From NCBI GenBank assembly GCA_023898565.1, contig CP060228.1, positions 696,995 to 760,994 of the forward strand: 64,000 nucleotides of DNA. The letters are read 5' to 3'. The notes under the pieces are model-generated. The model was not told the DNA's origin. It made no database searches and saw nothing but the letters and a program-made list of their open reading frames with translations. This DNA comes from Candidatus Nomurabacteria bacterium. GTDB lineage: Bacteria > Patescibacteriota > Minisyncoccia > Phycocordibacterales > UBA918. The stretch's first letter is position 1. Every line of letters begins with the position of its first letter. Below are positions 27,692 through 42,851 of the stretch, in pieces. The position numbers and the translations under genes are program-made.

Positions 27692-29431
27692 TTACATATC
27701 GTTTCTGAAAAACTCCCATAACGAATCACTTTCAGTGTGCCACTCGGTGATATTGTTGAATCGATCAGCTGGGCGTCCAGGGCGGGCGATTGGGGTAATG
27801 GTCATATCTTCTCGCACAACATACGTTAGCGTTGGCTGAAACAAGAAGACGGCAGGATGTTCGCTCGTGATAATGTCACTGGCTTCTCGCAGTGTTGCTT
27901 GTCGTTGTGGTCCGTATGCTTCTGTTCGAGCTGTTTCAAGCAGCTTGTCCACCTCAACGTTTGCGTATTGAGCAATGTTTAGTCCAGGATCATCTTGCTG
28001 TGATGAGTGCCAGAATGGGTATAAATCATACGAGCGACTCATGTCGAGCCCGAAAAGTAAGGCTTCAAAGTCACGTGGTCGGATGACGGACTGTACAAGG
28101 TCTGCTTGTTCAAACTGCTCGGTGGTCACTGACACTCCAATGGCTTCCCATTGTTTTGATACAGAATCGACTAATGATCCAAATAGCGGGGTGTTGCTGG
28201 TGCGGAGCGTGATGCGTAGTGGCACCATTTCGTCATTTATTTTTTTCTCCCAAGTGCCAAGTGAATCTTGTGTCCAGCCACCACTTTTTAGTAGGGCAAT
28301 CGCTTGATTCGCTGGCGTCGATGTTGCGGTATCAGTGATGCCGTCATTTGATTGTAGCGTAGTGCTTCCGAGCAGGGTAGGTGATGCTGTGGGGACACCA
28401 TATCCATGCAGTGCTGAGTCAATCAGTGCAGGTCGATCAAGCGCGATTGTCAATGCCTTGCGTGCGGTCGTGTCCCGAAGAGCAGCCGAGCGATTTTGGT
28501 TAAAGAAAATACCAAAAACACGAGGCAAAGGTTCTTCTACCAGCTTGTAGCCATCTTCGAGCACCTTTTCAATTTGATTGGTTGAGAGGTATGCCGTTGC
28601 GTCGATGTCGTGAGCGTCTAGAGCATTCAGTAGCGCCGATTCGTTTTGATAGAAATTAAGCTTAATGCCATCAATTTTTGAGTCACTCGTCGTCTGACGA
28701 TATGCTACGAGGTTGTAATTGCTAATAAGTCCAGAGGTGTCTCGCTTGGCGCTTTCAATTCTGAATGGTCCAGAACCGATTGGTTCAGTATTGAGCTGAC
28801 TAAAGGGTAGTTGCTCAATCGGCAAGCTGCTCCAGGCGTGTGCAGGCATAATGCCAAAAGTGAAGTTTTCAATAAATGGTGCGTATGCTTCTTCAAGCAC
28901 AACATTCAGTTCGTATTCATTGATTTCCTCAATCGTCACGTCACTCCAGTTGCCACGCAGTGGACTTTTAAGGTCTGGGTCTTGAATGAGTTTGATGGTG
29001 AAGACAACGTCTCGGGCAGTAAGTGGAGTGCCGTCGTGGAAGGTTACATCCTTCTTGAGAACTACGTTGTACGTTAAGCCATCATCAGATACTACAATCG
29101 TTTCTGCAAGATCATTCACTAGATTACCTTGGTTATCAATGCGCATAAGCCCGCTATACACCAAAGTGGTTACGTCTTGGTCGGCCCGAGTCAAAGCCAA
29201 GGCGGGATTCACAAAGCGAGGGGTGCCAACGATTCCTTCGGTGATTGTGCCGCCACGAGTTGGTGTAATTGCTGAACGGTCGTCATTGAAAGATAGAGCA
29301 AACCAAATGCCGGTGGCAATAACCAAGAAAAATAGGACTCGCAAAAACAAACGGTCACTTGGCGGCGTTCCTTCAATGCGATGGAGAAGTTTATCCAAAA
29401 GTCCTAACGACGGATTGGTTGGAGATGTCAT
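27692..29431 (-). CDS. ABC-transporter substrate-binding protein, family 5 (peptide/nickel), membrane-anchored, no adjacent permease or ATPase
   Basis: 579 aa; N-terminal TM; SBP_bac_5-like length and motifs. Confidence 0.55.
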   Translation of the reverse strand: MTSPTNPSLGLLDKLLHRIEGTPPSDRLFLRVLFFLVIATGIWFALSFNDDRSAITPTRGGTITEGIVGTPRFVNPALALTRADQDVTTLVYSGLMRIDNQGNLVNDLAETIVVSDDGLTYNVVLKKDVTFHDGTPLTARDVVFTIKLIQDPDLKSPLRGNWSDVTIEEINEYELNVVLEEAYAPFIENFTFGIMPAHAWSSLPIEQLPFSQLNTEPIGSGPFRIESAKRDTSGLISNYNLVAYRQTTSDSKIDGIKLNFYQNESALLNALDAHDIDATAYLSTNQIEKVLEDGYKLVEEPLPRVFGIFFNQNRSAALRDTTARKALTIALDRPALIDSALHGYGVPTASPTLLGSTTLQSNDGITDTATSTPANQAIALLKSGGWTQDSLGTWEKKINDEMVPLRITLRTSNTPLFGSLVDSVSKQWEAIGVSVTTEQFEQADLVQSVIRPRDFEALLFGLDMSRSYDLYPFWHSSQQDDPGLNIAQYANVEVDKLLETARTEAYGPQRQATLREASDIITSEHPAVFLFQPTLTYVVREDMTITPIARPGRPADRFNNITEWHTESDSLWEFFRNDM

Positions 29432-29526
29432 ATAAAATGATTAGTGATTACAAATGAGCGACGGTGTTTTCAAGAGAAAACACACATTTTTTACTGCAAA
29501 AGCAAGCCGAACTGAATTTCGGTTGT

Positions 29527-29766
29527 TTACGCGAGGATATTGAGAAATGCCGTGAGTACAAACAAGATTGCAATCCCGACTGAAAACTTGAACAAGAAAA
29601 GCTCCGCGCCTCGACGTTTGTGAAAGGCCGAACTGAAATTGTCGCCACCAAATGCTCCTCCCAAGCTTGAACCGCGCTGCTGGAGTAGAATCGCTGCAAC
29701 GAGGAGGATGGAGAGAATTATCTGGATATATGGCAGTGCTGGAAGCACTAAATCGATAATATTCAT
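29527..29766 (-). CDS. secG: preprotein translocase subunit SecG
   Basis: 79 aa, two TM helices separated by the Gly-rich loop LQQRGSSLGGAFGG typical of SecG. Confidence 0.75.
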   Translation of the reverse strand: MNIIDLVLPALPYIQIILSILLVAAILLQQRGSSLGGAFGGDNFSSAFHKRRGAELFLFKFSVGIAILFVLTAFLNILA

Positions 29767-29847
29767 GCCGAGTGATAGTAGCAGAAAGTGTCTAAGGAGG
29801 CAAGTATAAAGGAAAACAGCGGCTGCTAGCCGCTGTGAAAAGATACC

Positions 29848-30222
29848 TTACTTGAGCGCATATTTGTGGGCGCCTGATACATGGCTGATGTTGTACTTGG
29901 TGGGGGTCAGGGTGAAGTAGTCGATCTCAATGAAACGACTCTCGCCCTTGAGCAGGGTCGCAATCGGCAATTGCTGCCAGGTGTGTTCTTGGATGAGTCG
30001 ATTGATGGCCCCGTCGAATTGAGACGAGACAAACTTGAAACAGGCGCCCTCGCCAGTCAGGAGGCCATCCCAGTTGGTCCACTGGCGTCTCCACCAAGTA
30101 AATGTTTCTGGCAAAATGACCGCTGCGATGTGTGCCAGTAATTTGCTGGGTACTTTCTCGATTATGTTGCCATCGTGCAGTACAAGCAGGTCTTTACAAA
30201 CCAAGACATATCGAATTGCCAT
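29848..30222 (-). CDS. hypothetical protein
   Basis: 124-aa ORF with a downstream hairpin terminator (29820-29840, minus strand). No family recognised. Confidence 0.35.
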   Translation of the reverse strand: MAIRYVLVCKDLLVLHDGNIIEKVPSKLLAHIAAVILPETFTWWRRQWTNWDGLLTGEGACFKFVSSQFDGAINRLIQEHTWQQLPIATLLKGESRFIEIDYFTLTPTKYNISHVSGAHKYALK

Positions 30223-30386
30223 TTGTGTTCTCCTCTTTGAACAAATGTACTGCGGTCTTTATAGCAGTCAGGCCATTCAATTGCAATCAGTTTTTAGTGT
30301 CGGTATAATACCGGCGCGACGGAGGTGATTCGGTTGTTTTGGCAGTCGTAGTTTGATTTTCTACTACATTATAAAGTTCTTAAGTA

Positions 30387-30713
30387 ATGCATGATATGAG
30401 TGAAAAAAGTCCAATTAAGCCACTTGGCGATCGCGTAGTGGTACGACCCCTTACCGATGAGGAATTAGGAACCGTGTCAGCGTCAGGAATTATCATTCCA
30501 GACTCAGCCAAAAAGGAAAAACCAGAACAGGGAATTGTGATTGCGACGGGGCCTGGTAAATGGGATGAGGACGGAGAAAAGCGTATTCCACTGGAAGTAA
30601 AGGAGGGTGACCGCGTAGTCTTTTCGAAGTATGGTTACGACGAAGTAAAATATGAAGATAAGGAGTACTTTATCGTGTCTGAATCGTCTATTTTAGGCAT
30701 TTTCAACGGCTAA
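30387..30713 (+). CDS. groES: co-chaperonin GroES
   Basis: [12 protein letters not shown], mobile loop, [23 protein letters not shown]. The start could instead be the second Met at 30396. Confidence 0.85.
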
Positions 30714-30725
30714 TTAGTTATTTAA

Positions 30726-32387
<1,662 letters not shown>

Positions 32388-32565
32388 CCAGAAAATAAGG
32401 AGCGACGCGACTATATTTTCTGAGCTCTCCGAAAGAGCGCGCCTTCCTAGGGCGCTCGTCGGAGACTTACTGCTTCGCCAGTGATTTGCGCGCTTCCTAG
32501 CGCAAATCATCGGTGCACTACCTCGCACTCACTTCTTTAGTTCGAAATTCTTACATAACCCAATC

Positions 32566-32595
32566 AAAAAACAGCGGATTACCGCTGTTTTTTAT
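32566..32595 (+). terminator. groEL intrinsic terminator
   Basis: aaaaaacagcgg-atta-ccgctgtttttt. Confidence 0.7.
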
Positions 32596-32691
32596 TATTT
32601 GCAAGAACAGGGAAGACTCGTCTCAGAAACACTTGCTAAATTACAAATATGTTGTATTATTCCGCTCATTAACAAATCAAGCAACAAATTT

Positions 32692-34534
32692 TATGACTTT
32701 GCAAGCTTTTGAGCAAAAACATATGATCCAAGGTTCCTTGGCTGGCTTTGTGCTGGCACTGTTCTTTGTGCTTGGAGTGAGTCCAGCTGATGCAAAGAGT
32801 GAGGTGGTGCCAAGCTCGTTTGGTGGTGTTTTGTATTATCAAGCCACTGCAAGCAATTGGACCAACTACTGGTTTGCCGGACTAGGTCAGGTAGATGTGT
32901 ACGTAAAATATAATGCAAATGTCTATGATGCTACTTCTGGTGACTTAATTCCAGAAAATGGCACTGTGTCTGTTGGTACAAAACTTCGCTTTGAGCCAAC
33001 GCGTGGAGAGATTAGTTGGAATGGTGTTGGATATACTTCTGATACACCATTTGGACAATGGGTGCCCGGCGCTGCGCGTCCAGGGCTTACTGGTACTCAA
33101 GTGGTGACTGGTACAAACTGGTCGTACACGTTTCGAACGGGGTCTTGTGCAGCGGCAAATTGGGTAGATAATCCAATTAATCCGTATAATAATCTTCCAA
33201 CCCCAGTGTACATTCCGTTTTCTGTGAATCCGGAGACAATGACTGTTGATTTGTCTGGATCAACAGCTGGTCTGAATGATTTGGGTGGAAACGTCTATGA
33301 GGTGACTGCACCTGGGTCAGTTGTTGCTCAGTTTGTGTATGACCCCACGTTTGGTCGCTTTTACTATGAATACATTTCAACGACTGCTATTTACGCACCG
33401 GGTAGCTGCTTTACTTCTTGGGATCTTCGTCCGATGAGTATTTCGGGTAGCTGGTTTGGGTTTAATCCGACCTACAATCATCCGGTTCCCGGCGCAAGTA
33501 TCTCGTATAACATAACTGTTGCTGATGCTCCGTCAGGAAACAATCCTCCCGAGACGCCGGTCATTACTGGCGCTGGAGCAAACTCACACTTGGCTGGCGA
33601 GTATCAAAACTTTACAATTGTTGCTGACGATCTCGACGGCGATGCATTGTCATACCGAATTGATTGGGATAATAATGGCTCGGTTGATCAGTGGGTGCCA
33701 TCATCTGGGTATGTTGTTCCAAATGTGCCACAAGGTGCGGCAAAGAAATGGTTGTCTGGCGGCACCTATTCATTTAAGGCTAAAGTAATTGATGTGCATG
33801 GTGCAGAGTCTGGCTGGGGTACGTACACAATCAAAATTTGTGACGCTGGTTATGTTTGGGATGGTTCAGCTTGTCAGCCGCCGTTACCAGATCTTACTCC
33901 GTACGCAATGTTGCACCCAAGCACGGTCTTCAACAGTGTAACTGGCATCTTCGACATTGTAGTGATTGAGTACTGGGCGAAAAATGTTGGTGGAAATATC
34001 GTCACTGATAATTTCATCAATACGATTGCGCTCGATCGAGACAACGATGGGTCGATTGCTGCTGGTGATCAGCAAACTGACCCGATGAGTGACAACCTCA
34101 ATCCAAATGACGAATCGGGTCATCATATTCTTACTGTTGCGACAAACGTACCGGCAGGCGACCATGTTATTAAGATTAATCTTGATACAAATGACGATGT
34201 TACCGAGTCGAGTGAGTTAAACAATGACACAACAGTTTCGCTTAATCCGATTGTGCCAACGCTTACTCTCACCATCGATGACGATTTTGTACGCTTCAAA
34301 ACAACAACTACACTACACTGGACCGTTGATATGGTGTATCTCAATGACTGTTCAGTGGTTGGTCCGGGTGTAAATGCTGCTATCAACCCTTCTGTTGTGG
34401 GAGGGTCTGGTGACATAGCAACCGGTCTTATTACGGCCAAGTCTGAATATGTGTTCAGCTGTACGGTGCCAGGTGGAAGCACCTACACTGCCACTGCTAC
34501 GGTTGAGACGACTGGTTCAGTTGAGGAGATTTAG
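32692..34534 (+). CDS. large secreted surface protein with PKD/cadherin-like and CARDB-like beta-sandwich domains (paralog A)
   Basis: Signal peptide MIQGSLAGFVLALFFVLGVSPADA. Motifs ADDLDGDALSYRIDWDNNGSVDQW and DLTPYAMLHP...ALDRDNDGS (CARDB-like). Start chosen at Met 32692; the listed 32513 extension covers the groEL terminator region. Confidence 0.6.
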
Positions 34535-34547
34535 TACGAGTTTGTAC

Positions 34548-34580
34548 ACAAAAAGCCCGCGGCGAAAGCTGTGGGCTTTT
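34548..34580 (+). terminator. intrinsic terminator after paralog A
   Basis: aagcccgcggcgaaagctgtgggcttttt. Confidence 0.6.
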
Positions 34581-34651
34581 TGTGTACAAACGTCTCGCGT
34601 GTTTTCTTATCAGTTGGTACAATGTATGTACTTATCGATTAATATTTCGTT

Positions 34652-37600
34652 ATGCACTTAGTTACAAGAGTCTTAAGTGGCGTGTTTTTTTCCTTGCTGG
34701 TTCTGCCAGCTTTAGTTTTGGCACAGGCACCTGGAATTACCCAGCTAAACACTAATGAACCTCCCAACGAGCTTGCGCTGCAACCGCCAGCATTCTTGGA
34801 TGCCGTGCAGTCAGAAGATGATTGGAATGCTTTAACGCCTGAGCAGCAGGCTGAAGCAGCGGCGTTCTTTGCTTCTTTTGGACCAGGCTTAACTACTGCC
34901 AATACAGCTTCGCCGGACGGGACAGTGTCGTGTTTTGACTACTACACGTTCGGCAGTGTTAAGGTAAATGTGCAAGGTGTGCTAGCGTCAACGGTGTCGG
35001 GAGTACCCTTCACCTTCACCGGTACAATTGATAACGAGAACCCGTATCCAGTTGTTGATGGCGCGGTGTACATGAAGATTTTTCGTCAGCCAGGAGATGG
35101 CTCAACACCAGTAAATGGCTATGATGTGGTGTACCAAGGTTTTGTAGAAGAGGGGTTGTCCTTACCTGCTGGTGGTTCAATGCCAATCAATTTTAGTTGG
35201 AATATTCCTGCTGCACTACCGTCAGGGCAATATCAAGCTGCTTTTTTCTATACGTCTGCAAAGCGCTTCAACCTGCTCGGGTTACCCTTTACCGATGATG
35301 TTGTGGGCAACACCGTCTCGTTCGCTGTCACTGGTGAGCTTACGGATACGGTGACCTTTCAAAAAGATAGTGTGACCGTCGCTGACAATAACTACTTTTT
35401 TGCTGCCTTTACGCCAAAGGTAGATACGGTTGCGCCTGTAGAAGTTGCTGCTGTGCTAGTAAATACCACCGACAAAGAGCAGGTTGTGCCCATCACAATT
35501 ACCACGTATGCCTGGGACCAACAGCGTGCTGAAAATGTTGTTGATACCACGACCACTTCAGTTACTTTGGCAGCGGGAGAGAGTTCGCCGTTGCGGCATG
35601 TTGTTACCGACACAAGAAATTCAGTCTATCTTGTGGTATTTGAGTCTTCATACCTGGATACGAAAAGCATTCTTAATGTTCGGTTCACGCGTAGTGACGT
35701 GCCAACCACACGCATTAATTTCCCGGCTGTCACGTCATACCCACTACGCGCAGGCGAGCAAGCAACTGTGTTCTCGTGTTTGCATGCAGCTGGCACTATG
35801 GAGATGGTCGCGGGAGGAAAGCTGGAGCTTACGCTCAAAGACGAAGCAGGGAATCCGTTCCATGCCTACACGTACGAAGGCGGTGTCACTGGAGCAATGA
35901 TGGGTGTTGCTGAGGTTTTTACTCCAGAACGTGATTATTCAAAATTTACACTTTCGGCAGCACTTTACCGAGATAATCAGCTTGTTGACACGGTAGACAT
36001 GGTTTATGACTGCACTGCGCTCCAAGAAACGTGTACGCAAGTTCCAGCGTCAGTTTCGCCTGGTGAGCAGGGGCAGGCCGCCGGCATTGTGGTGAAGCTT
36101 TTTGCCATGGCACTTATTTTTGCGGCGTTACTTGCTATTGCTTTTAAAATCTTTTTCAAAGAAGAAAAGTATATTACCGGCGAACACACACCTGATGATC
36201 TTGGAAACTCAAACGGCCCGTCACCGATGGGGCCGATGATACTTCTGCTCTTGGCTTTTGGCAGTTTTGTGTTTGGCGCGGGCCAGGCGGAAGCGAAAAG
36301 TGTCGTTTGGAACAGTGCGATGTTGCCCCCGCTGGCTTATTATTGGGCAAACATACACTCAGCGTGGCAGACTTCAGCAATGACCCCCGGTGCGGTAGGG
36401 TGTGTAAACCCAGGCCCAGGCGGCTGTGGGTTTCAACTAGCGTTAGATAACGCTCTGGCTTCTGTCACTTATAAAGCTGAGGTTTATGACTATACAACAG
36501 GAAATGTTTTGGCTGATGGAGCGGTGGTGCCGGTTGGAACAAAGCTTCAAATTCGAGAAATCCCTAAAATCAATACTGATATTTCATGGTTCGGAACTGG
36601 ACATTCGAGTGATAGTCCCTACGGTCGCTGGGTCGCTGCTGCTGGTCCTTTGACGAGCATCGGCTGTTCTCCTGGTGACTATACAGGTACTGCCAGTTTA
36701 ATTCTAGCCGAAGATCCAATTCATACATACAACATGTTGCATGTTGACCCCAAGACACCACTGCCGCTTCCTGTCAGTGCTAATTTGTCGTGCGATGCTG
36801 GCGGGGTGTGTGACGTAACTGCTCCAGGACCAATAAACCTTCGCATGTCATTTCCTGAAACTGTCGGTCGATTTTATCATCGGTACGTGGGAAAAATTTG
36901 GGGAAATTGGATTTGTGGTGGGAACAATGTACCTTTGAGAACTTTCACGGCAGAAGATTATTCGTTTACGTACATGGGTGTATATTATGCATTTTATGCG
37001 AATATTGTGCCAAGTGGTAGTGATTATTTTTTACAGATTCCCGAGCAAGCTATAGATTTTACCTTTAATGCTATTTCGGTTTCGGAGAACTCGGTACCTG
37101 AAATTCCTAGTATTTCTAACGCACTCCCCCAGACCCACATGGTGGGTGACGCTCAAACCTTCAGTGTTGTAGCAGATGATCCCGATGGTGATGTGTTGCG
37201 TTATGGAGTGGATTGGAATGAAGATGGTGTAGTTGATCAGTGGTTGCCTGGCATTGGGCATGTTTCGGGCGGAACTTCCGTAACAACAGCGCGAACGTGG
37301 GTAACGGCCGGCATAAAATCATTTCAGGTCTTAGCAGAGGATATTAATGGTGGGCGTTCGGAGTTTGCTTCTCACCAGATTGTAATTTGCAATACAGGTT
37401 ACACCTGGGATGGTGCTACGTGCTTACCGCCAAAGCCAGACTTAGTACCATATGCTTCGATTAGTCCGTTAACCGTCTTTGACTCAGTTCTAGGTGTGTA
37501 TCCTCAGGTGGTGATTGAGTATTCAATTGAAAATAATGGTGACGTTCAAGTTGATGAAGCCTCAGAGAATTATATTGGCCTTGATCGCAATAATGATGGT

Positions 37601-38089
37601 AGTTACGCTGCTGCAGATGAGCAGTATGATGCTACTGATTTTAGCCTGGCACCATTATCGGTTGGCTCTGTGTCTGCTCCAAAGACTGTCGTGGTTGGAA
37701 CAAATGTTCCGCTCGGAACACACACTATTTTGATTGATGTTGATTACGATAACTCAATTGACGAGACTGATGAAACAAACAACCAACGAACGTTAACGCT
37801 CACTTCTCCGGCACCATCGCTGACGCTCGACGTTTCAGATGACTTTGTCCGCGCGGGGACCACCGCGGTGCTTACCTGGGCAACAAGCGCCACGTACCTT
37901 TCTAGCTGTACCATTAAGGGGCCGGGAGTGAATGTTGCTATCAATCCTTCAGTGTCTGGTTCGACCGGTACGGTACCGACTGGTGCAATCGCTGCCAAGT
38001 CAGAGTATGTATTTAGTTGTTCGGATACAGGAGGTGTATATTCAGTGTCTGCAGTAGTGGGGACAACAGGAACGGTGCAGGAAATATAA
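34652..38089 (+). CDS. very large surface protein: unique N-terminal half plus a C-terminal half paralogous to the upstream gene (apparent fusion)
   Basis: Signal peptide; residues about 1-480 unique; TM-like stretch then signal-peptide-like MGPMILLLLAFGSFVFGAGQAEA; residues about 545-1145 align along paralog A (ADDPDGDVLRYGVDWNEDGVVDQW, C-terminal AAKSEYVFSC). Confidence 0.6.
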   Translation: MHLVTRVLSGVFFSLLVLPALVLAQAPGITQLNTNEPPNELALQPPAFLDAVQSEDDWNALTPEQQAEAAAFFASFGPGLTTANTASPDGTVSCFDYYTFGSVKVNVQGVLASTVSGVPFTFTGTIDNENPYPVVDGAVYMKIFRQPGDGSTPVNGYDVVYQGFVEEGLSLPAGGSMPINFSWNIPAALPSGQYQAAFFYTSAKRFNLLGLPFTDDVVGNTVSFAVTGELTDTVTFQKDSVTVADNNYFFAAFTPKVDTVAPVEVAAVLVNTTDKEQVVPITITTYAWDQQRAENVVDTTTTSVTLAAGESSPLRHVVTDTRNSVYLVVFESSYLDTKSILNVRFTRSDVPTTRINFPAVTSYPLRAGEQATVFSCLHAAGTMEMVAGGKLELTLKDEAGNPFHAYTYEGGVTGAMMGVAEVFTPERDYSKFTLSAALYRDNQLVDTVDMVYDCTALQETCTQVPASVSPGEQGQAAGIVVKLFAMALIFAALLAIAFKIFFKEEKYITGEHTPDDLGNSNGPSPMGPMILLLLAFGSFVFGAGQAEAKSVVWNSAMLPPLAYYWANIHSAWQTSAMTPGAVGCVNPGPGGCGFQLALDNALASVTYKAEVYDYTTGNVLADGAVVPVGTKLQIREIPKINTDISWFGTGHSSDSPYGRWVAAAGPLTSIGCSPGDYTGTASLILAEDPIHTYNMLHVDPKTPLPLPVSANLSCDAGGVCDVTAPGPINLRMSFPETVGRFYHRYVGKIWGNWICGGNNVPLRTFTAEDYSFTYMGVYYAFYANIVPSGSDYFLQIPEQAIDFTFNAISVSENSVPEIPSISNALPQTHMVGDAQTFSVVADDPDGDVLRYGVDWNEDGVVDQWLPGIGHVSGGTSVTTARTWVTAGIKSFQVLAEDINGGRSEFASHQIVICNTGYTWDGATCLPPKPDLVPYASISPLTVFDSVLGVYPQVVIEYSIENNGDVQVDEASENYIGLDRNNDGSYAAADEQYDATDFSLAPLSVGSVSAPKTVVVGTNVPLGTHTILIDVDYDNSIDETDETNNQRTLTLTSPAPSLTLDVSDDFVRAGTTAVLTWATSATYLSSCTIKGPGVNVAINPSVSGSTGTVPTGAIAAKSEYVFSCSDTGGVYSVSAVVGTTGTVQEI

Positions 38090-38092
38090 ACA

Positions 38093-38120
38093 AAAGCCCG
38101 CGGCGAAGCCGCGGGCTTTT
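38093..38120 (+). terminator. intrinsic terminator after paralog B, near-copy of the one after paralog A
   Basis: aaagcccgcggcgaagccgcgggcttttg. Confidence 0.65.
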
Positions 38121-38186
38121 GTTTCTTGCGTGTCAGATTGTGGTACTATATAGAACACAGTTAATTATTTGTTTATTTGAGTAGTT

Positions 38187-38762
38187 ATGGGAATTTCTAT
38201 TGTAGTTATTGTTCTGCTGGCGCTGTACGTTGTGTTTGCATACAACAAGTTTGTAAAGCTCACGCAGCAAGCCAAAGAAGCTTGGGCAGATATTGATGTA
38301 CAGCTTAAACGTCGTTACGACCTTATTCCAAATTTGATAGAGACTGTAAAGGGGTATGCTGGTCACGAGAGACAAACACTCGAACAGGTGACAGCGGCGA
38401 GAGCAGCTGCCACGCAGACACACGTTGATCCTTCGAATTTAACCGCGGACAGCATTGCTGCTATGGCCGGAGCAGAATCTGCCCTTACTGGCGCACTTGG
38501 CCGCTTGATGGCGATTGCAGAGAATTACCCGGACCTTAAAGCAAACACCAACTTTTTGGAATTGCAGCGCGAGCTTTCAGATACTGAAAACAAGATTCAG
38601 GCAGCACGTCGCTTCTACAATGGTAACGTCCGTGATTTGAATATTGCCCTCAAATCATTTCCTTCAAATGTAGTTGCTTCAATGTTCAGTTTCAAGGAGG
38701 AGCCGTACTTTGAACTTGAGGAAAATAGTGTTGAACGAGAAGCGGTTAAGGTGCAGTTCTAA
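38187..38762 (+). CDS. lemA: LemA-family protein
   Basis: N-terminal TM; YNKFVKLTQQAKEAWADIDVQLKRRYDLIPNLIETVKGYAGHE is the LemA signature region. Confidence 0.8.
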   Translation: MGISIVVIVLLALYVVFAYNKFVKLTQQAKEAWADIDVQLKRRYDLIPNLIETVKGYAGHERQTLEQVTAARAAATQTHVDPSNLTADSIAAMAGAESALTGALGRLMAIAENYPDLKANTNFLELQRELSDTENKIQAARRFYNGNVRDLNIALKSFPSNVVASMFSFKEEPYFELEENSVEREAVKVQF

Positions 38763-38764
38763 TC

Positions 38765-40495
38765 ATGTTTGCTCGCTCCGTCTCAGGTTTGCGTAGCGCG
38801 TTGACAGTAGCAATATTGAGCGCCAGCCTTTGGCTGGCGCTCTTTGCTTTCGTTTCTGCCACTGAAACCATCACTTTGTTTACTTCTGATATTGAAATTC
38901 AGGCAGATGGAGACCTTTTAGTGACCGAAACAATTACGTATGATTTTGGCAACTCGCTGCGTCACGGAATATATCGTAATTTGAGTGAACGTCATTTTGA
39001 GATGCCAACGAAGTGGTATAAGGAACGATATACTTCATACGCAGTAATTTCAGTTACACGAGACGGAAGTCCTGAACCGTATACCACAGCCGAAAAGGAT
39101 GGTCTTTCAATCAAAATTGGCAGTGCGACGACTCAAATTCAGGGTGTACACACGTATGAGATTGTCTATCGAGTACAAGGCGCACTTTCAAATTCGACAG
39201 ACGGGCCAGAGTTGTATTGGAATGTAACCGGCGACGAATGGCAAGTAACAATGCAGAAGGTTTTAGCCAATATCACTGTTGCTTCAGGGGTGGCTTTGGG
39301 CACCAAACAATACTGCTATGCTGGCAGCTCCGGGACACGGACACAATGTAGCCACAATGCGCTGCAAGACGGCGTGGCAATTTTCCAACAAGAAAGTATT
39401 TCGCCAGGACAACAGCTTACTGTTGCGCAAACAGTGTCGTTGTTGCAACCTTTAGTGCCACTAGAACGGCTTAAGCTGGGTTTTATTCTTATTCCATTTG
39501 GTGTTATTGCGTTACTCTATACAGCCTTTGCGAGCTATCGGTGGCGCACTAGGTACAAAGGAAACACAACGGTTGTTGCACAATATGAACCATACGAAAA
39601 TTTCAAACCCATGTTTACTGGTGTGCTTATTGACGGTAGGCTTGATGCGAGTGATATTTCCGCAGGAATTATTTATTTAGCGCAGCAGGGTTTTTTGAAG
39701 ATCAGACAACAAGAGCACAAGATTTTATTCTTTACGGCCAAGGACTACGAGATTGAGCTTTTACGACCAAAATCTGAAGTTGAGCTTGCCTCGCAGGGAG
39801 AATTACTTCACTTGTTGTTTTTAGATGCAAATCAAGTGGGGAGTATTGTCTCTCTTTCTGAGCTTAAAAAAGACATGTCTAGACGCAGGTCAAATAGTAA
39901 AGTAATTAGCGAGCTTAAAAAATCAGTCGTGAAGGACATGGTCGATAATGGTTTTTTGGAGCAACGATTTCCTCGAGTGGCAGTTGTTATCAGTGTTTTC
40001 TTGGTTTTCATTTTCGTGCAGATTTCTGCACCGCTCCTTGCATCTCTGGGTACAAACACGATGGTCGTATTCACTATCGTGATTACACTCTCTGTCGTGT
40101 TGATCTACTTTACGGTTACGGCAGAACGGCGTACTGCACATGGCTATGAAGCATTGCATTATCTCAAGGGCTTTAGAGAGTTTCTTTCGGTGACAGAGGC
40201 TGAGCGGTATAAGTTTCACAATGCTCCAAGGAAATCACCTGAACAATTTATGGAGTTTCTTCCGTATGCAATTGCGTTTAAGGTAGAAAAGGAATGGGCA
40301 AAAATTTTTGATGATCTCACGATTCCAAATCCCGACTGGTACGAAGGTAATGCCACTGTTTTTTCCGCCTCAGCTTTTACTGAAGGTCTAGGTTCGTTTT
40401 CAACAACTTTTGTGCAATCGTCTGGTTCTTCTGGCTCGTCTGGCAGTGGTTCTGCCGGTGGAGGTGGCGGAGGTGGAGGTGGGGGTTCATGGTAG
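38765..40495 (+). CDS. DUF2207-like membrane protein with Gly/Ser-rich C-terminal tail
   Basis: 576 aa: signal/TM, extracellular beta-rich domain, about 4 TM, C-terminal SGSSGSSGSGSAGGGGGGGGGGSW. Immediately follows lemA, as is typical for this pairing. Confidence 0.55.
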   Translation: MFARSVSGLRSALTVAILSASLWLALFAFVSATETITLFTSDIEIQADGDLLVTETITYDFGNSLRHGIYRNLSERHFEMPTKWYKERYTSYAVISVTRDGSPEPYTTAEKDGLSIKIGSATTQIQGVHTYEIVYRVQGALSNSTDGPELYWNVTGDEWQVTMQKVLANITVASGVALGTKQYCYAGSSGTRTQCSHNALQDGVAIFQQESISPGQQLTVAQTVSLLQPLVPLERLKLGFILIPFGVIALLYTAFASYRWRTRYKGNTTVVAQYEPYENFKPMFTGVLIDGRLDASDISAGIIYLAQQGFLKIRQQEHKILFFTAKDYEIELLRPKSEVELASQGELLHLLFLDANQVGSIVSLSELKKDMSRRRSNSKVISELKKSVVKDMVDNGFLEQRFPRVAVVISVFLVFIFVQISAPLLASLGTNTMVVFTIVITLSVVLIYFTVTAERRTAHGYEALHYLKGFREFLSVTEAERYKFHNAPRKSPEQFMEFLPYAIAFKVEKEWAKIFDDLTIPNPDWYEGNATVFSASAFTEGLGSFSTTFVQSSGSSGSSGSGSAGGGGGGGGGGSW

Positions 40496-40531
40496 TTTAT
40501 TTTACGGCGTGTATAGTATTATAATTAGACT

Positions 40532-40915
40532 ATGTCAGAGATAAATCGTATCTACTACAACAAGCTTGTGCGAGATAATATTCCAGCAAAAATCGAGGCA
40601 AAGCATCAGACGTGCGAGATACGGAAAATTACCGATGTACAGGAGCTTCAGCAGGAACTTTTCAAAAAAATTAAGGAGGAAGCTGCTTCTTTGGCGATGT
40701 GTCGTACAAAGGAAGAATTTCTTGAAGAGTACAGCGACTTAATGGTCGTGCTCGATACGCTTATTCGACAACTTGAGGTAAGTAAAGAGGAGCTGATTGA
40801 ACATCGGCGGAATAATCTGCTCAAGAAGGGTGGCTACAAGCAAGGACATTTCCTTGTGTGGTCCGACGATGTGGGATATCGTTCAAACGAAAGTGTGCAA
40901 GGAATCCCGCTCTAG
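40532..40915 (+). CDS. MazG-like all-alpha nucleoside triphosphate pyrophosphohydrolase domain protein
   Basis: N-terminal YYNKLVRDNIPAKIE and downstream EE...E helix pattern typical of MazG/HisE-like NTP-PPases. Confidence 0.45.
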   Translation: MSEINRIYYNKLVRDNIPAKIEAKHQTCEIRKITDVQELQQELFKKIKEEAASLAMCRTKEEFLEEYSDLMVVLDTLIRQLEVSKEELIEHRRNNLLKKGGYKQGHFLVWSDDVGYRSNESVQGIPL

Positions 40916-40944
40916 CTCGTAGTAATGAATTGTAATTACTGTAA

Positions 40945-41841
40945 ATGGCAACCCTATATACCGAACAATCGAGAAATGTGACGAAGACGTTTATGTTAAT
41001 GGGCGTTTTCTTAGTGATGATTATCGGCATTTGCTACTTTATTTCTAGCTACGTAGGTAACCCGGTTATTCTGTACGTTGGTGCTATCTTTGCAATTTGT
41101 ACGAGTGTGGGGAGCTATTGGTTTTCTGACAAGATTGTCTTGCGCATGACCAACGCTCATCCCGTCGCCCATGCTGAGGCTCCAGAGCTCTATAATATTG
41201 TCGAAAACCTTGCTATCACTGCAGGATTGCCTATGCCGAAAGTGTACATAGTCGATGATCCTGCGCCCAATGCTTTTGCGACGGGGCGTGACCCAGAGCA
41301 TGCAGTAGTGGCGGCAACGACTGGTCTATTGCGTATTCTGGACCGTACGGAGCTTGAGGGTGTCATGGCTCACGAGCTGTCTCATGTCGGGAACCGCGAC
41401 ATGCTTGTTATGACGGTGGCGGTGGTTTTGGCTGGGTTTGTGGCAATTATTGCTGACATGTTTTCACGCGCGCTCTGGTTTGGTGGTGACAACGACCGTA
41501 ATCGTTCTCCCATTTTTTTGATTATTGGAATTATTGGAATTATTTTAGCGCCAATTGCAGCAAAGCTTATTCAGTTAGCAATTTCTCGTAAGCGTGAATA
41601 CCTGGCTGATGCTTCTGGTGCACTACTGACCAGATACCCAGAAGGATTAGCTTCTGCTTTAGAAAAAATTAATACTGCAGGCATACCCATGCGCAATGCG
41701 TCCACTGCAACGGCTCACTTATTTATCTCAGATCCATTTACTGGTAACAAGAAGGGAATTGGTCAAAAGATTGCCGGATTATTTCAGACGCATCCACCAG
41801 CTGAAGATCGCATTGCTCGGTTGCGTAACATGGGTTCATAA
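40945..41841 (+). CDS. htpX: zinc metalloprotease HtpX (M48 family)
   Basis: Four TM; HELSHVGNRD zinc-binding HExxH; downstream E in ISRKREYLAD. Confidence 0.85.
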   Translation: MATLYTEQSRNVTKTFMLMGVFLVMIIGICYFISSYVGNPVILYVGAIFAICTSVGSYWFSDKIVLRMTNAHPVAHAEAPELYNIVENLAITAGLPMPKVYIVDDPAPNAFATGRDPEHAVVAATTGLLRILDRTELEGVMAHELSHVGNRDMLVMTVAVVLAGFVAIIADMFSRALWFGGDNDRNRSPIFLIIGIIGIILAPIAAKLIQLAISRKREYLADASGALLTRYPEGLASALEKINTAGIPMRNASTATAHLFISDPFTGNKKGIGQKIAGLFQTHPPAEDRIARLRNMGS

Positions 41842-42851
41842 TGATGTTAATAAAAAACAACATTCCCGATGTTGCAACACTACATAACCGACTAGAGTCT
41901 GTTCTGGAGAGTGGCTTGACCGAGTTTTTGGAGCACACTAAAGATCGCCGATCTAAGGTGTATGCAAATGTTAAGTTTGTACTCGTTTCAGTTTTTTTCT
42001 TCGTGGCTATTTGGGTATTTATTTCAGTTTTTCTACTCTCAATTGGGACTGGCATGACATTTCAAATAGCGGTTGCGCTGTCAATTATTTGGGCGGCGAT
42101 TCTTTTAGTTAGCAGTCGGTCGTGGCTCCGAAACACTCGCCTGCTTGCTCGTGAGGTAAATATGGCCCTGACGCCGACGTTTTCGGCGGTGTTTGATCGA
42201 TTGTTTTTGTATACCCACAATGGGGAGAAGGCGAAACGAGTAAAGCAGCTGCTGACCGAATCGTCACTACTGACCACGGAAGGACTGTGGGTGACAGCCG
42301 ATGATTCTTTTGAAGTGTTTTCTGGAGAGCAGAAGACTGAGTTTCATGAAGTATTGGTAAGTATGCGTGAACCGAAAGGCGGTACTGGTCGCGATGCTGT
42401 AGAGACAGAAATCTTTAGAGGTATGTTGATGGTTACAAAGCTTGGAATACAGCATCAAGCCGAGACGTACATTTCTACCGATGGTGACCGGCATGGTTTT
42501 GCACATCAAAGTTTTTGGACAGTGGTGCTGGGTATGAGCAAGGTGAAAACCACAGAGTTGGAATGGAATGATTTTGAGCAAGTGCTGCATGTGGCGAGTA
42601 CAGATGGTCGAGCTGCTCGAGAGTTTTTAAGTCCTGAGGTTATGCAGGATGTCTATGAGTGGTGGCAAGAGCATAAGCTTAATATGCGGATAGCAATTAA
42701 GCACGATCGGCTGTATTTGCTTTTGCCAGAGGCGAAAACACGTATCGAGGCTAGTACTGCGTCAGCAAAGCTGTCAGAGATTGTAAAGTACGCCAAGACA
42801 CTCGCCAGGCCGATTTGGCGCGGGTTAGTGTTGGCTGACGATGTAGCATGA
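41841..42851 (+). CDS. hypothetical membrane protein (DUF3137-like?), start overlaps the htpX stop (ATAATG)
   Basis: Two N-terminal TM helices then a soluble domain. The family call is recollection only. Confidence 0.3.
   Translation: MMLIKNNIPDVATLHNRLESVLESGLTEFLEHTKDRRSKVYANVKFVLVSVFFFVAIWVFISVFLLSIGTGMTFQIAVALSIIWAAILLVSSRSWLRNTRLLAREVNMALTPTFSAVFDRLFLYTHNGEKAKRVKQLLTESSLLTTEGLWVTADDSFEVFSGEQKTEFHEVLVSMREPKGGTGRDAVETEIFRGMLMVTKLGIQHQAETYISTDGDRHGFAHQSFWTVVLGMSKVKTTELEWNDFEQVLHVASTDGRAAREFLSPEVMQDVYEWWQEHKLNMRIAIKHDRLYLLLPEAKTRIEASTASAKLSEIVKYAKTLARPIWRGLVLADDVA

Follow-up and report, generated by a model that had tools for sequence, protein, structure and literature searches.

Adjoining Parcubacteria genes encoding a putative two-part envelope protein and a stand-alone copy of its outer half

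The cells of the Candidate Phyla Radiation depend on contact with host surfaces, yet their envelopes are almost unknown at the protein level. Here, we describe two adjoining open reading frames (ORFs), A and B, which lie on the forward (+) strand of a 64,000-nucleotide (nt) stretch of Candidatus Nomurabacteria DNA (assembly GCA_023898565.1, contig CP060228.1, positions 696,995 to 760,994), hereafter the window, and whose features are collected in Table 1. B appears to encode a fused two-part envelope protein, and A a stand-alone copy of its distal, C-terminal half. The locus points to a widespread and unannotated Parcubacteria protein family with an unusual feature: two exported halves are apparently connected through a stop-transfer helix followed by an internal signal peptide. 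The family occurs naturally in fused and in split versions. The A-B pair is kept in three genomes, that is, in the window and in two related metagenomic contigs (L001 and L002), which have the gene order groES-groEL, A, B, lemA, ..., htpX in common; no further copies of A or B were found by tblastn within the window. A first-pass annotation of this DNA had called both genes giant, but their products have 613 and 1145 amino acids (aa), and it had placed the start of A at 32692, one nucleotide before the actual ATG at 32693. The ATG is conserved in the A orthologs of L001 and L002, which also keep the promoter-like hexamers 5' of the gene. The NCBI annotation of A begins at the second Met and gives a protein of 603 aa.

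Table 1. Features of the A-B locus (window coordinates; AF2, AlphaFold 2; pLDDT, predicted local distance difference test; arrow, predicted cleavage site)
Feature	Position	Strand	Details
Promoter-like site of A	32633..32660	+	TTGCTA, 16 nt, TATTAT; consensus scan; putative function
Gene A	32693..34534	+	ORF; distal (C-terminal) half of the two-part module as a gene of its own
A signal peptide, aa 1-34	32693..32794	+	...GVSPADA↓KSEVV; single hydrophobic segment aa 11-29
A N-domain, aa 35-285	32795..33547	+	Beta-rich; aligned with B 549-815; AF2 all-beta
A PKD domain, aa 286-382	33548..33838	+	
A Cys linker + CARDB domain, aa 383-522	33839..34258	+	Linker CDAGYVWDGSACQPP
A C-terminal domain, aa 523-613	34259..34531	+	End VETTGSVEEI
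A terminator	34540..34591	.	Palindrome, 24-nt arms; conserved in L001 and L002
Recombination tract (predicted)	34630..37420	.	~2.8 kb
Gene B	34652..38089	+	ORF; fused two-part envelope protein (predicted)
B N-terminal signal peptide, aa 1-25	34652..34726	+	...LVLA↓QA; hydrophobic segment aa 7-25
B proximal half, three Ig-like beta-sandwich domains, aa ~90-455	34919..36016	+	AF2 strands, pLDDT mostly >90
B helix 1, aa 478-502	36083..36157	+	Putative stop-transfer membrane anchor; hydropathy 2.71; AF2 helix 476-502
B loop, aa 503-528	36158..36235	+	Predicted cytoplasmic; disordered in AF2; K/R-rich
B helix 2, aa 529-548	36236..36295	+	Putative internal signal peptide, AEA↓KS; short hydrophobic run; AF2 helix 526-539
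B distal-half N-domain, aa 549-815	36296..37096	+	Beta-rich, 548-815 in AF2; paralogous to A 35-285
B PKD domain, aa 816-912	37097..37387	+	
B Cys linker + CARDB domain, aa 913-1050	37388..37801	+	Linker CNTGYTWDGATCLPP
B C-terminal domain, aa 1056-1145	37817..38086	+	End GTTGTVQEI; final beta-sandwich 1056-1140 in AF2
B terminator	38088..38124	.	Perfect palindrome, 17-nt arms

The proposal that A and B are collinear paralogs is borne out by pairwise alignment, which yields one block and goes far beyond short low-complexity motifs. BLASTP of A (32693-34531) against B (34652-38086) returns a single collinear alignment (A71-613/B605-1145, 39% identity, 567 columns, E 4e-113), and a global alignment carries the match back through the signal peptide of A. 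The paralogous part of B is its last ~545-575 residues. Amino-acid identity is 43% in the signal peptide, 36% in the N-domain, 39% in the PKD domain, 61% in the Cys linker, 43% in the CARDB domain and 57% in the last domain, and nucleotide identity is 47-59% in every segment. With an identity of 39%, the divergence of A and B is evidently old, and their paralogy, while real, is best described as old and ordinary.

Both proteins carry signal peptides and all-beta immunoglobulin (Ig)-like folds, in agreement with the earlier suggestion that they are secreted or surface proteins, and the PKD, CARDB and shared C-terminal domains had also been called correctly. The AF2 models (pLDDT 89 for A; pLDDT 82 and a predicted template modelling score (pTM) of 0.70 for B) consist of beta-sandwiches with PKD and CARDB fold matches and no enzyme fold, and the domains of A follow the order found in the distal half of B. 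The CARDB domain of B, at ~930-1050 in the model, matches the Pfam family (PF07705) with 25.9 bits (E 1.2e-5) and passes the gathering cut-off of 22.7 bits. The PKD domains have a PKD-type beta-sandwich fold with a conserved WDFGDG-like core; the Pfam PKD hidden Markov models give no match to A or B at E<=1, and for a relative, P0072, there is a weak precomputed match to PF00801. A scan of A and B with NCBIfam models returned no match. In the proximal half of B, a poorly ordered linker connects the signal peptide to the first beta-sandwich, and strongly conserved motifs, including CFDYYxFGS and LLGLSFTDDVVGN, are present; neither this half nor the N-domain of A is matched by a Pfam or NCBIfam model.

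Homologs of B were found in Parcubacteria (61 proteins, from sources labelled Kaiser-, Nomura-, Moran- and Pacebacteria and Paceibacterota), and at least 92 Parcubacteria proteins with the layout of B were collected. The alignments of the 61 homologs mostly span B ~40-912, the N-terminal part up to and including the PKD domain, and most stop at 905-940, commonly at 912. The layout begins with a signal peptide and then three Ig-like domains; a long hydrophobic helix and a short loop rich in lysine and arginine (K/R) lead to a shorter second helix ending in (A/V)EA↓KS, after which come a beta-rich domain, the PKD domain, the Cys linker and a variable tail. According to a Pfam scan of six family members, the tails carry CARDB, Big_7, BiPBP_C, Calx-beta or Flg_new modules. 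Beyond these add-on modules, no Pfam or NCBIfam model matches the conserved core, and ~650 of its ~900 residues are without a family model. Also, no description of a B-type family was found in the literature on Patescibacteria CARDB/PKD proteins and Parcubacteria surface layers (S-layers). B itself can be regarded as the canonical, ancestral-type two-part form of the family.

The tail of B ends in a C-terminal domain of ~90 residues, whose extreme C-terminus is a near-invariant VETxGx(V/I)EE(I) in 41 of 50 proteins. Carriers of this domain include proteins with unrelated N-terminal architectures, such as a 1215-aa protein in L004 and an 823-aa protein in L007. In both loci, the unrelated proteins that end in it are encoded immediately upstream of B-type genes (L004 9185-9790 and L007 5347-7818). 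The conserved end suggests a docking or sorting role, and a purely structural or anchoring role of the domain is equally possible. The last 96 residues of B alone gave no match in a word-indexed protein search, for which the query is too short.

The connection between the two halves is an unusual feature of the family. A pair of helices near residues 430-560 is found in nearly all of ~58 long homologs; in P0063, only the first helix passes the hydropathy threshold. The first helix is long and very hydrophobic, and the second is shorter, with (A/V)EA↓KS following directly. The loop between them contains at least two K/R within its first 8 residues in all 57 of 57 homologs and has a median net charge of +3. 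Small residues occupy positions -3 and -1 in 77 of 92 fused proteins, and an exact EA[KA][ST] is present in 42 of the 92. Residues 503-548 of B read as a K-rich loop followed by MILLLLAFGSFVFGAG and QAEA↓KS, and from aa 549 on, the sequence reads KSVVWNSAMLPP. The second segment of B hence combines a basic n-region, a short h-region and small -3/-1 residues, and this pattern is family-wide. The positive-inside rule and the -3/-1 rule are the basis on which such a helix and loop topology is read. Since the pattern fits both rules, helix 1 is predicted to be a stop-transfer anchor, the loop to be cytoplasmic and helix 2 to be an internal signal peptide, a topology that would place both large halves outside the cell.

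Natural split forms of the module point in the same direction. When 1.84 billion representatives were searched with A (phmmer), 1953 matches were obtained, 94 of them below 1e-30. Among the 1953 are many short proteins whose A-like region sets in within ~10-60 residues of the N-terminus. Of the short distal-half-only proteins collected, forty start with a Met of their own and a hydrophobic stretch. The genomic context was inspected for three of them (L006, L008 and L009). In L006, a 456-aa gene product corresponds to the proximal half (37% identity to B 83-496, E 8e-83) and ends just past helix 1; 4 nt downstream follows a gene for a 614-aa distal half, which begins with MKKYSFLILGVFSFVLFTASFVQSVSA↓KS. 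L008 and L009 have the same split arrangement, the upstream gene of L009 being cut by the contig end. As these three loci encode the halves as adjacent genes, the module exists both fused and split. In all three loci, the split lies precisely between helix 1 and helix 2, and the second gene starts with an ordinary signal peptide. Fission at this position is the strongest indirect support for the reading of helix 2 as a signal peptide and of the halves as separate but cooperating parts.

Gene A resembles these distal-half genes. Its signal peptide is collinear with helix 2 of B and of the fused family and with their AEA↓KS site, and ...PADA↓KS of A is in register with ...QAEA↓KS of B. Residues 16-613 of A align with residues 535-1142 of the fused protein P0008, and the A ortholog P0003 aligns over residues 9-614 with B 518-1145. 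Since A aligns with fused proteins from the second helix onward, it is a distal-half-only gene; plain tandem copying of an entire gene does not describe it, A corresponding only to the distal half of B from the internal signal peptide on. The orthologs of A have 75% (L001) and 80% (L002) protein identity. Nonsynonymous divergence (dN) is 0.06-0.20, synonymous divergence (dS) is saturated, and dN/dS is ~0.04-0.07 where it can be computed, which argues that A is under strong purifying selection and still functional. This selection and the conservation of the pair imply that both A and B are maintained. Unlike in the split loci, no proximal-half gene or remnant is present upstream of A, that position being taken by the terminator of groEL and a structured spacer.

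Taking these observations together, we think it probable, and hold with moderate confidence, that B is a two-part envelope protein with an internal signal peptide and that A is a copy of its outer half, cleavage and a scaffold or adhesin role being deduced from topology and fold. B would be made as a precursor, and both of its large halves would be exported. Helix 1 would stop transfer, the loop would stay in the cytoplasm and helix 2, acting as an internal signal peptide, would start export anew. A cut by signal peptidase I after AEA(548) would then release the distal half, with the three-Ig proximal half remaining as a membrane anchor. The released half could stay on the surface by binding to the anchor and/or through the tail of CARDB and C-terminal domain that it shares with A, and A would be an alternative distal subunit with the same kind of tail. 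An internal start at Met523 or Met526 of B was also considered as a source of a separate distal half and was set aside; this Met is not conserved in the family, and inspection of the DNA shows no Shine-Dalgarno-like sequence ahead of it.

Several points weigh against this interpretation. In 15 of the 92 fused members, a regular expression finds no clear -3/-1 motif, and the signal-peptide calls were made by inspecting hydropathy and motifs. In a neighbour-joining tree without support values, A and B fall into separate clades that are not sisters. The role of A and B, likely that of an envelope scaffold or adhesin built of Ig-like modules, is read from fold type and topology only. Finally, B might not be processed at all: its helices could form a permanent membrane hairpin that keeps both ectodomains on one polypeptide, and A could be a separately secreted or signal-anchored relative. 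Such a hairpin would agree with the conservation of the helix pair in nearly all long homologs, with the two helices and the whole-chain pTM of the AF2 model, and with those members that have no clean AxA-type motif. It accounts poorly for the strong conservation of (A/V)EA↓KS right after a short hydrophobic run, for the use of the same site to end the signal peptide in the split genes and in A, and for fission exactly between the helices in each of the three loci; we consider an unprocessed B unlikely, though it deserves to be kept in mind. As to function, attachment to a host or epibiont, which the first-pass annotation had put forward, is conceivable. Elsewhere in the Patescibacteria, genes for Ig-like and PKD proteins are among those that are highly expressed, and a part in attachment has been suggested for them (PMC10936435).

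While A appears to be a distal-half-only paralog, its derivation by local partial duplication of B is less certain, because the tree splits A from B. A might not have arisen from B locally, and could instead be the remnant of a split-type operon or a horizontally acquired distal-half gene that came to lie beside B, with only the tails homogenised or exchanged later. In keeping with this, the core of A (aa 20-382) is 39-44% identical to the fused proteins P0009, P0011, P0012 and P0008, as compared with 36-39% to B, and the core of B is demonstrably replaceable by recombination (see below). The tail of A, on the other hand, is closest to the tail of B in the same genome (49% vs 24-40% to tails elsewhere), and neighbouring genes have the most similar tails also in L007 (71%) and, to a lesser degree, in L004 (46%), where the upstream genes have unrelated N-terminal parts; a preference for the neighbour's tail at three loci would suit later tail exchange. 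The differences in identity are nevertheless small, the tree has no support values, an ordinary local duplication followed by replacement of the B core with a foreign allele gives the same pattern, and a proximal-half remnant is missing upstream of A. A non-local origin seems doubtful to us.

As had been anticipated, a recombination variant comes to light when related genomes are compared, and it concerns the core of B. Sliding-window identity and mismatch density delimit a tract in which the window is 94.6% identical to L001, as compared with ~71% in the flanks, with switch points near 34630 and 37420. By segment, nucleotide identity to L001 is ~71% in gene A, 69% in the A-B spacer, 94.6% in B from 34652 to 37400, 71% in the tail of B and ~75% in lemA. 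The 3' breakpoint falls in the Cys linker between the PKD and CARDB domains, where the family-wide core ends and close to the usual end of the family-wide alignments. Within the tract dS is 0.10-0.22, and outside it is saturated. Because synonymous divergence is low only inside the tract, selection on the protein cannot explain it. This indicates a recent exchange of the B core, between the start codon and the PKD/CARDB linker, through homologous recombination, the partner being either the L001 lineage or a donor that also supplied that lineage. In L002, the core of B shows greater divergence than the regions beside it (66% vs 73-77% identity, with stretches at 53-58%). The tract shared with L001 and the diverged core of L002 suggest that the B core behaves as an exchangeable cassette, which would make it a clear-cut case of a surface-protein core being replaced between species at the boundary of a domain. 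A mosaic or fused B could also be an artefact of metagenome mis-assembly or sequencing error, given that the window comes from a metagenome-assembled genome (MAG). A second, independent assembly (L130) is, however, 100% identical across window positions 32837-42089 (9.25 kb) and so excludes an assembly artefact; moreover, the fused ORF is intact in L001, L002 and ~90 other genomes, and the tract is 94.6% and not 100% identical to L001, so that we regard this explanation as extremely improbable.

Two further stretches of unusual divergence were observed. The PKD domain of B (window 37040-37400) has only 53-59% nucleotide identity in L002, with dN of 0.47-0.52, next to ~0.12 in the adjoining distal N-domain, and could represent a second module swap. 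In htpX, ~450 nt at window 41078-41600 are 88-96% identical to L002, as compared with ~75-80% around them, and dS between the window and L002 is 0.88, with the other pairs saturated; this stretch is a possible second recombination tract.

The 3' ends of A and B had been taken as evidence for a duplication that included the 3' untranslated region (UTR). Both genes are followed, right after the stop codon, by a GC-rich hairpin and a T run as expected of rho-independent terminators, and the two terminators are both palindromic and share the exact 16-mer AAAAGCCCGCGGCGAA at 34551 and 38092. However, a hairpin of the form AAGCCCGCGGC-N3-4-GCCGCGGGCTT occurs in at least 120 unrelated genomes of many phyla, and the terminator of B is not conserved in its orthologs, with a different hairpin in L001 and none in L002. 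An untouched 16-mer is not a relic of duplication when the coding DNA is only 47-59% identical, and the look-alike terminators are, to all appearances, a generic hairpin. Gene conversion between the 3' ends of A and B as the source of the match was rejected, the adjacent coding DNA being only ~56% identical.

The same findings bear on the broader scenario that the 3' part of the gene was duplicated in tandem fairly recently, together with its 3' UTR and terminator, and that the copies are diverging as antigenically or phase-variable attachment proteins. Apart from the adjacency of same-strand paralogs and the exact 16-nt match, the faster evolution of B than of its neighbours in some segments, such as its PKD domain between L002 and the other two genomes, could be cited for it. 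Its weakness lies not only in the diverged coding DNA, in a B terminator that varies among genomes while that of A is conserved, and in the generic hairpin, but also in the strong purifying selection on A and in the lack of any sign of a variation mechanism. Between 32300 and 38300, the sole tandem repeat is an 8-nt unit present twice and the sole inverted repeats are the terminators. Neither slippage repeats nor an invertible promoter nor silent-cassette or gene-conversion features typical of phase- or antigenically variable genes were found, and A and B show no homogenisation or concerted evolution, their identity within a genome equalling that across genomes. A recent duplication of this kind is hence very improbable, and phase variation finds no support. 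The original observation of tandem paralogs with copied terminators is thus ordinary in its first part and wrong in its second. What the locus adds is a B family with a conserved, predicted internal signal peptide, A as an orphan copy of the outer half, and the apparent replacement of the B core between lineages. One may go further and speculate that the B-type polyprotein is a major envelope module of Parcubacteria, cut by signal peptidase into an anchored three-Ig stalk and a released outer subunit in analogy to two-component S-layers, that the outer subunits (A and other neighbours with CARDB and a VETxGxxEEI tail) are interchangeable through docking of their tails, and that the core is swapped between species; taken as a whole, we see this as a long shot.

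The surroundings of the pair have some features of their own. The spacer between groEL and A (window 32388-32600) is predicted to form a very stable structure (minimum free energy -81.4 kcal/mol, z -7.4) with two long hairpins at ~32421-32468 and ~32477-32514, the loop of each containing CUUCCUAG; the groEL terminator at 32566-32593 lies 3' of them. The hairpin unit is present in one copy in L001 and in three copies in L002, and it matched no Rfam family; an Rfam scan of 29000-42000 gave sub-threshold matches of terminators to attenuator leaders only. Downstream, a gene for a 576-aa DUF2207 membrane protein (window 38765-40495) lies between lemA and a 127-aa gene. It is also present in L130 and is missing from L001 and L002, which are otherwise syntenic. 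Directly after the B-type gene, L003 (14679-16064), L004 (14540-15928) and L005 (8493-9881) encode a protein of ~461 aa with a von Willebrand factor A domain, and no such gene lies 3' of B in the window. In the NCBI records of identical proteins, A is found in a MAG labelled Candidatus Kaiserbacteria and B in Candidatus Nomurabacteria, the latter on a 951,832-bp contig, and both are called 'hypothetical'. As these labels differ, at least one of them must be loose.

The closest known domains are the PKD domain (e.g. PDB 4xed, from the PKD domains of the collagenases ColG/ColH) and CARDB (PF07705, PDB 3idu). These account for only ~220 of the ~600 residues shared by A and B, whereas the proximal half, the N-domain of the distal half and the last domain have no family model. 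With regard to processing, the SlpA precursor of Clostridioides difficile is cut by Cwp84, a dedicated cysteine protease, into two envelope subunits, and the cytochrome b/c1 polyprotein FbcH of Bradyrhizobium is processed at an internal signal peptide. Viral envelope polyproteins are likewise cut by signal peptidase (e.g. PMC8002126). B shows no homology to any of these. By analogy, it would similarly yield two exported parts from one ORF, with cleavage predicted, and as in FbcH and the viral cases an internal hydrophobic segment and a signal-peptidase site lie between the parts; in contrast to SlpA, the candidate enzyme is signal peptidase and not a dedicated cysteine protease. Regarding the tail, Parcubacteria are not known to possess an outer membrane or a secretion system of type IX (T9SS). 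The C-terminal domain of T9SS substrates is a conserved C-terminal beta-sandwich sorting domain (PMC4804311). The last ~90 residues of A and B are not homologous to it, and no candidate sorting enzyme was identified; like the T9SS domain, however, they form a small beta-sandwich at the extreme C-terminus and are found on unrelated N-terminal architectures.

A further comparison can be made with the archaeal S-layer that Sulfolobus builds from two components, in which the SlaB stalk carries a larger, more variable and beta-rich outer canopy, SlaA (PMC10903991). B differs from this system in having no coiled-coil stalk, in belonging to a bacterium and in having parts that are usually fused; neither a sequence match nor a specific fold match to SlaA/SlaB was detected, nor homology to known S-layer proteins. 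On paper, however, the division of labour would be the same, with a proximal half of ~500 aa, composed of three beta-sandwiches and a C-terminal helix, in the place of the stalk and the distal half in that of the canopy. Also, as with SlaA and SlaB, the two parts are encoded by adjacent genes in some genomes, and in L006 and L008 these would specify an anchored subunit and a separate outer subunit.

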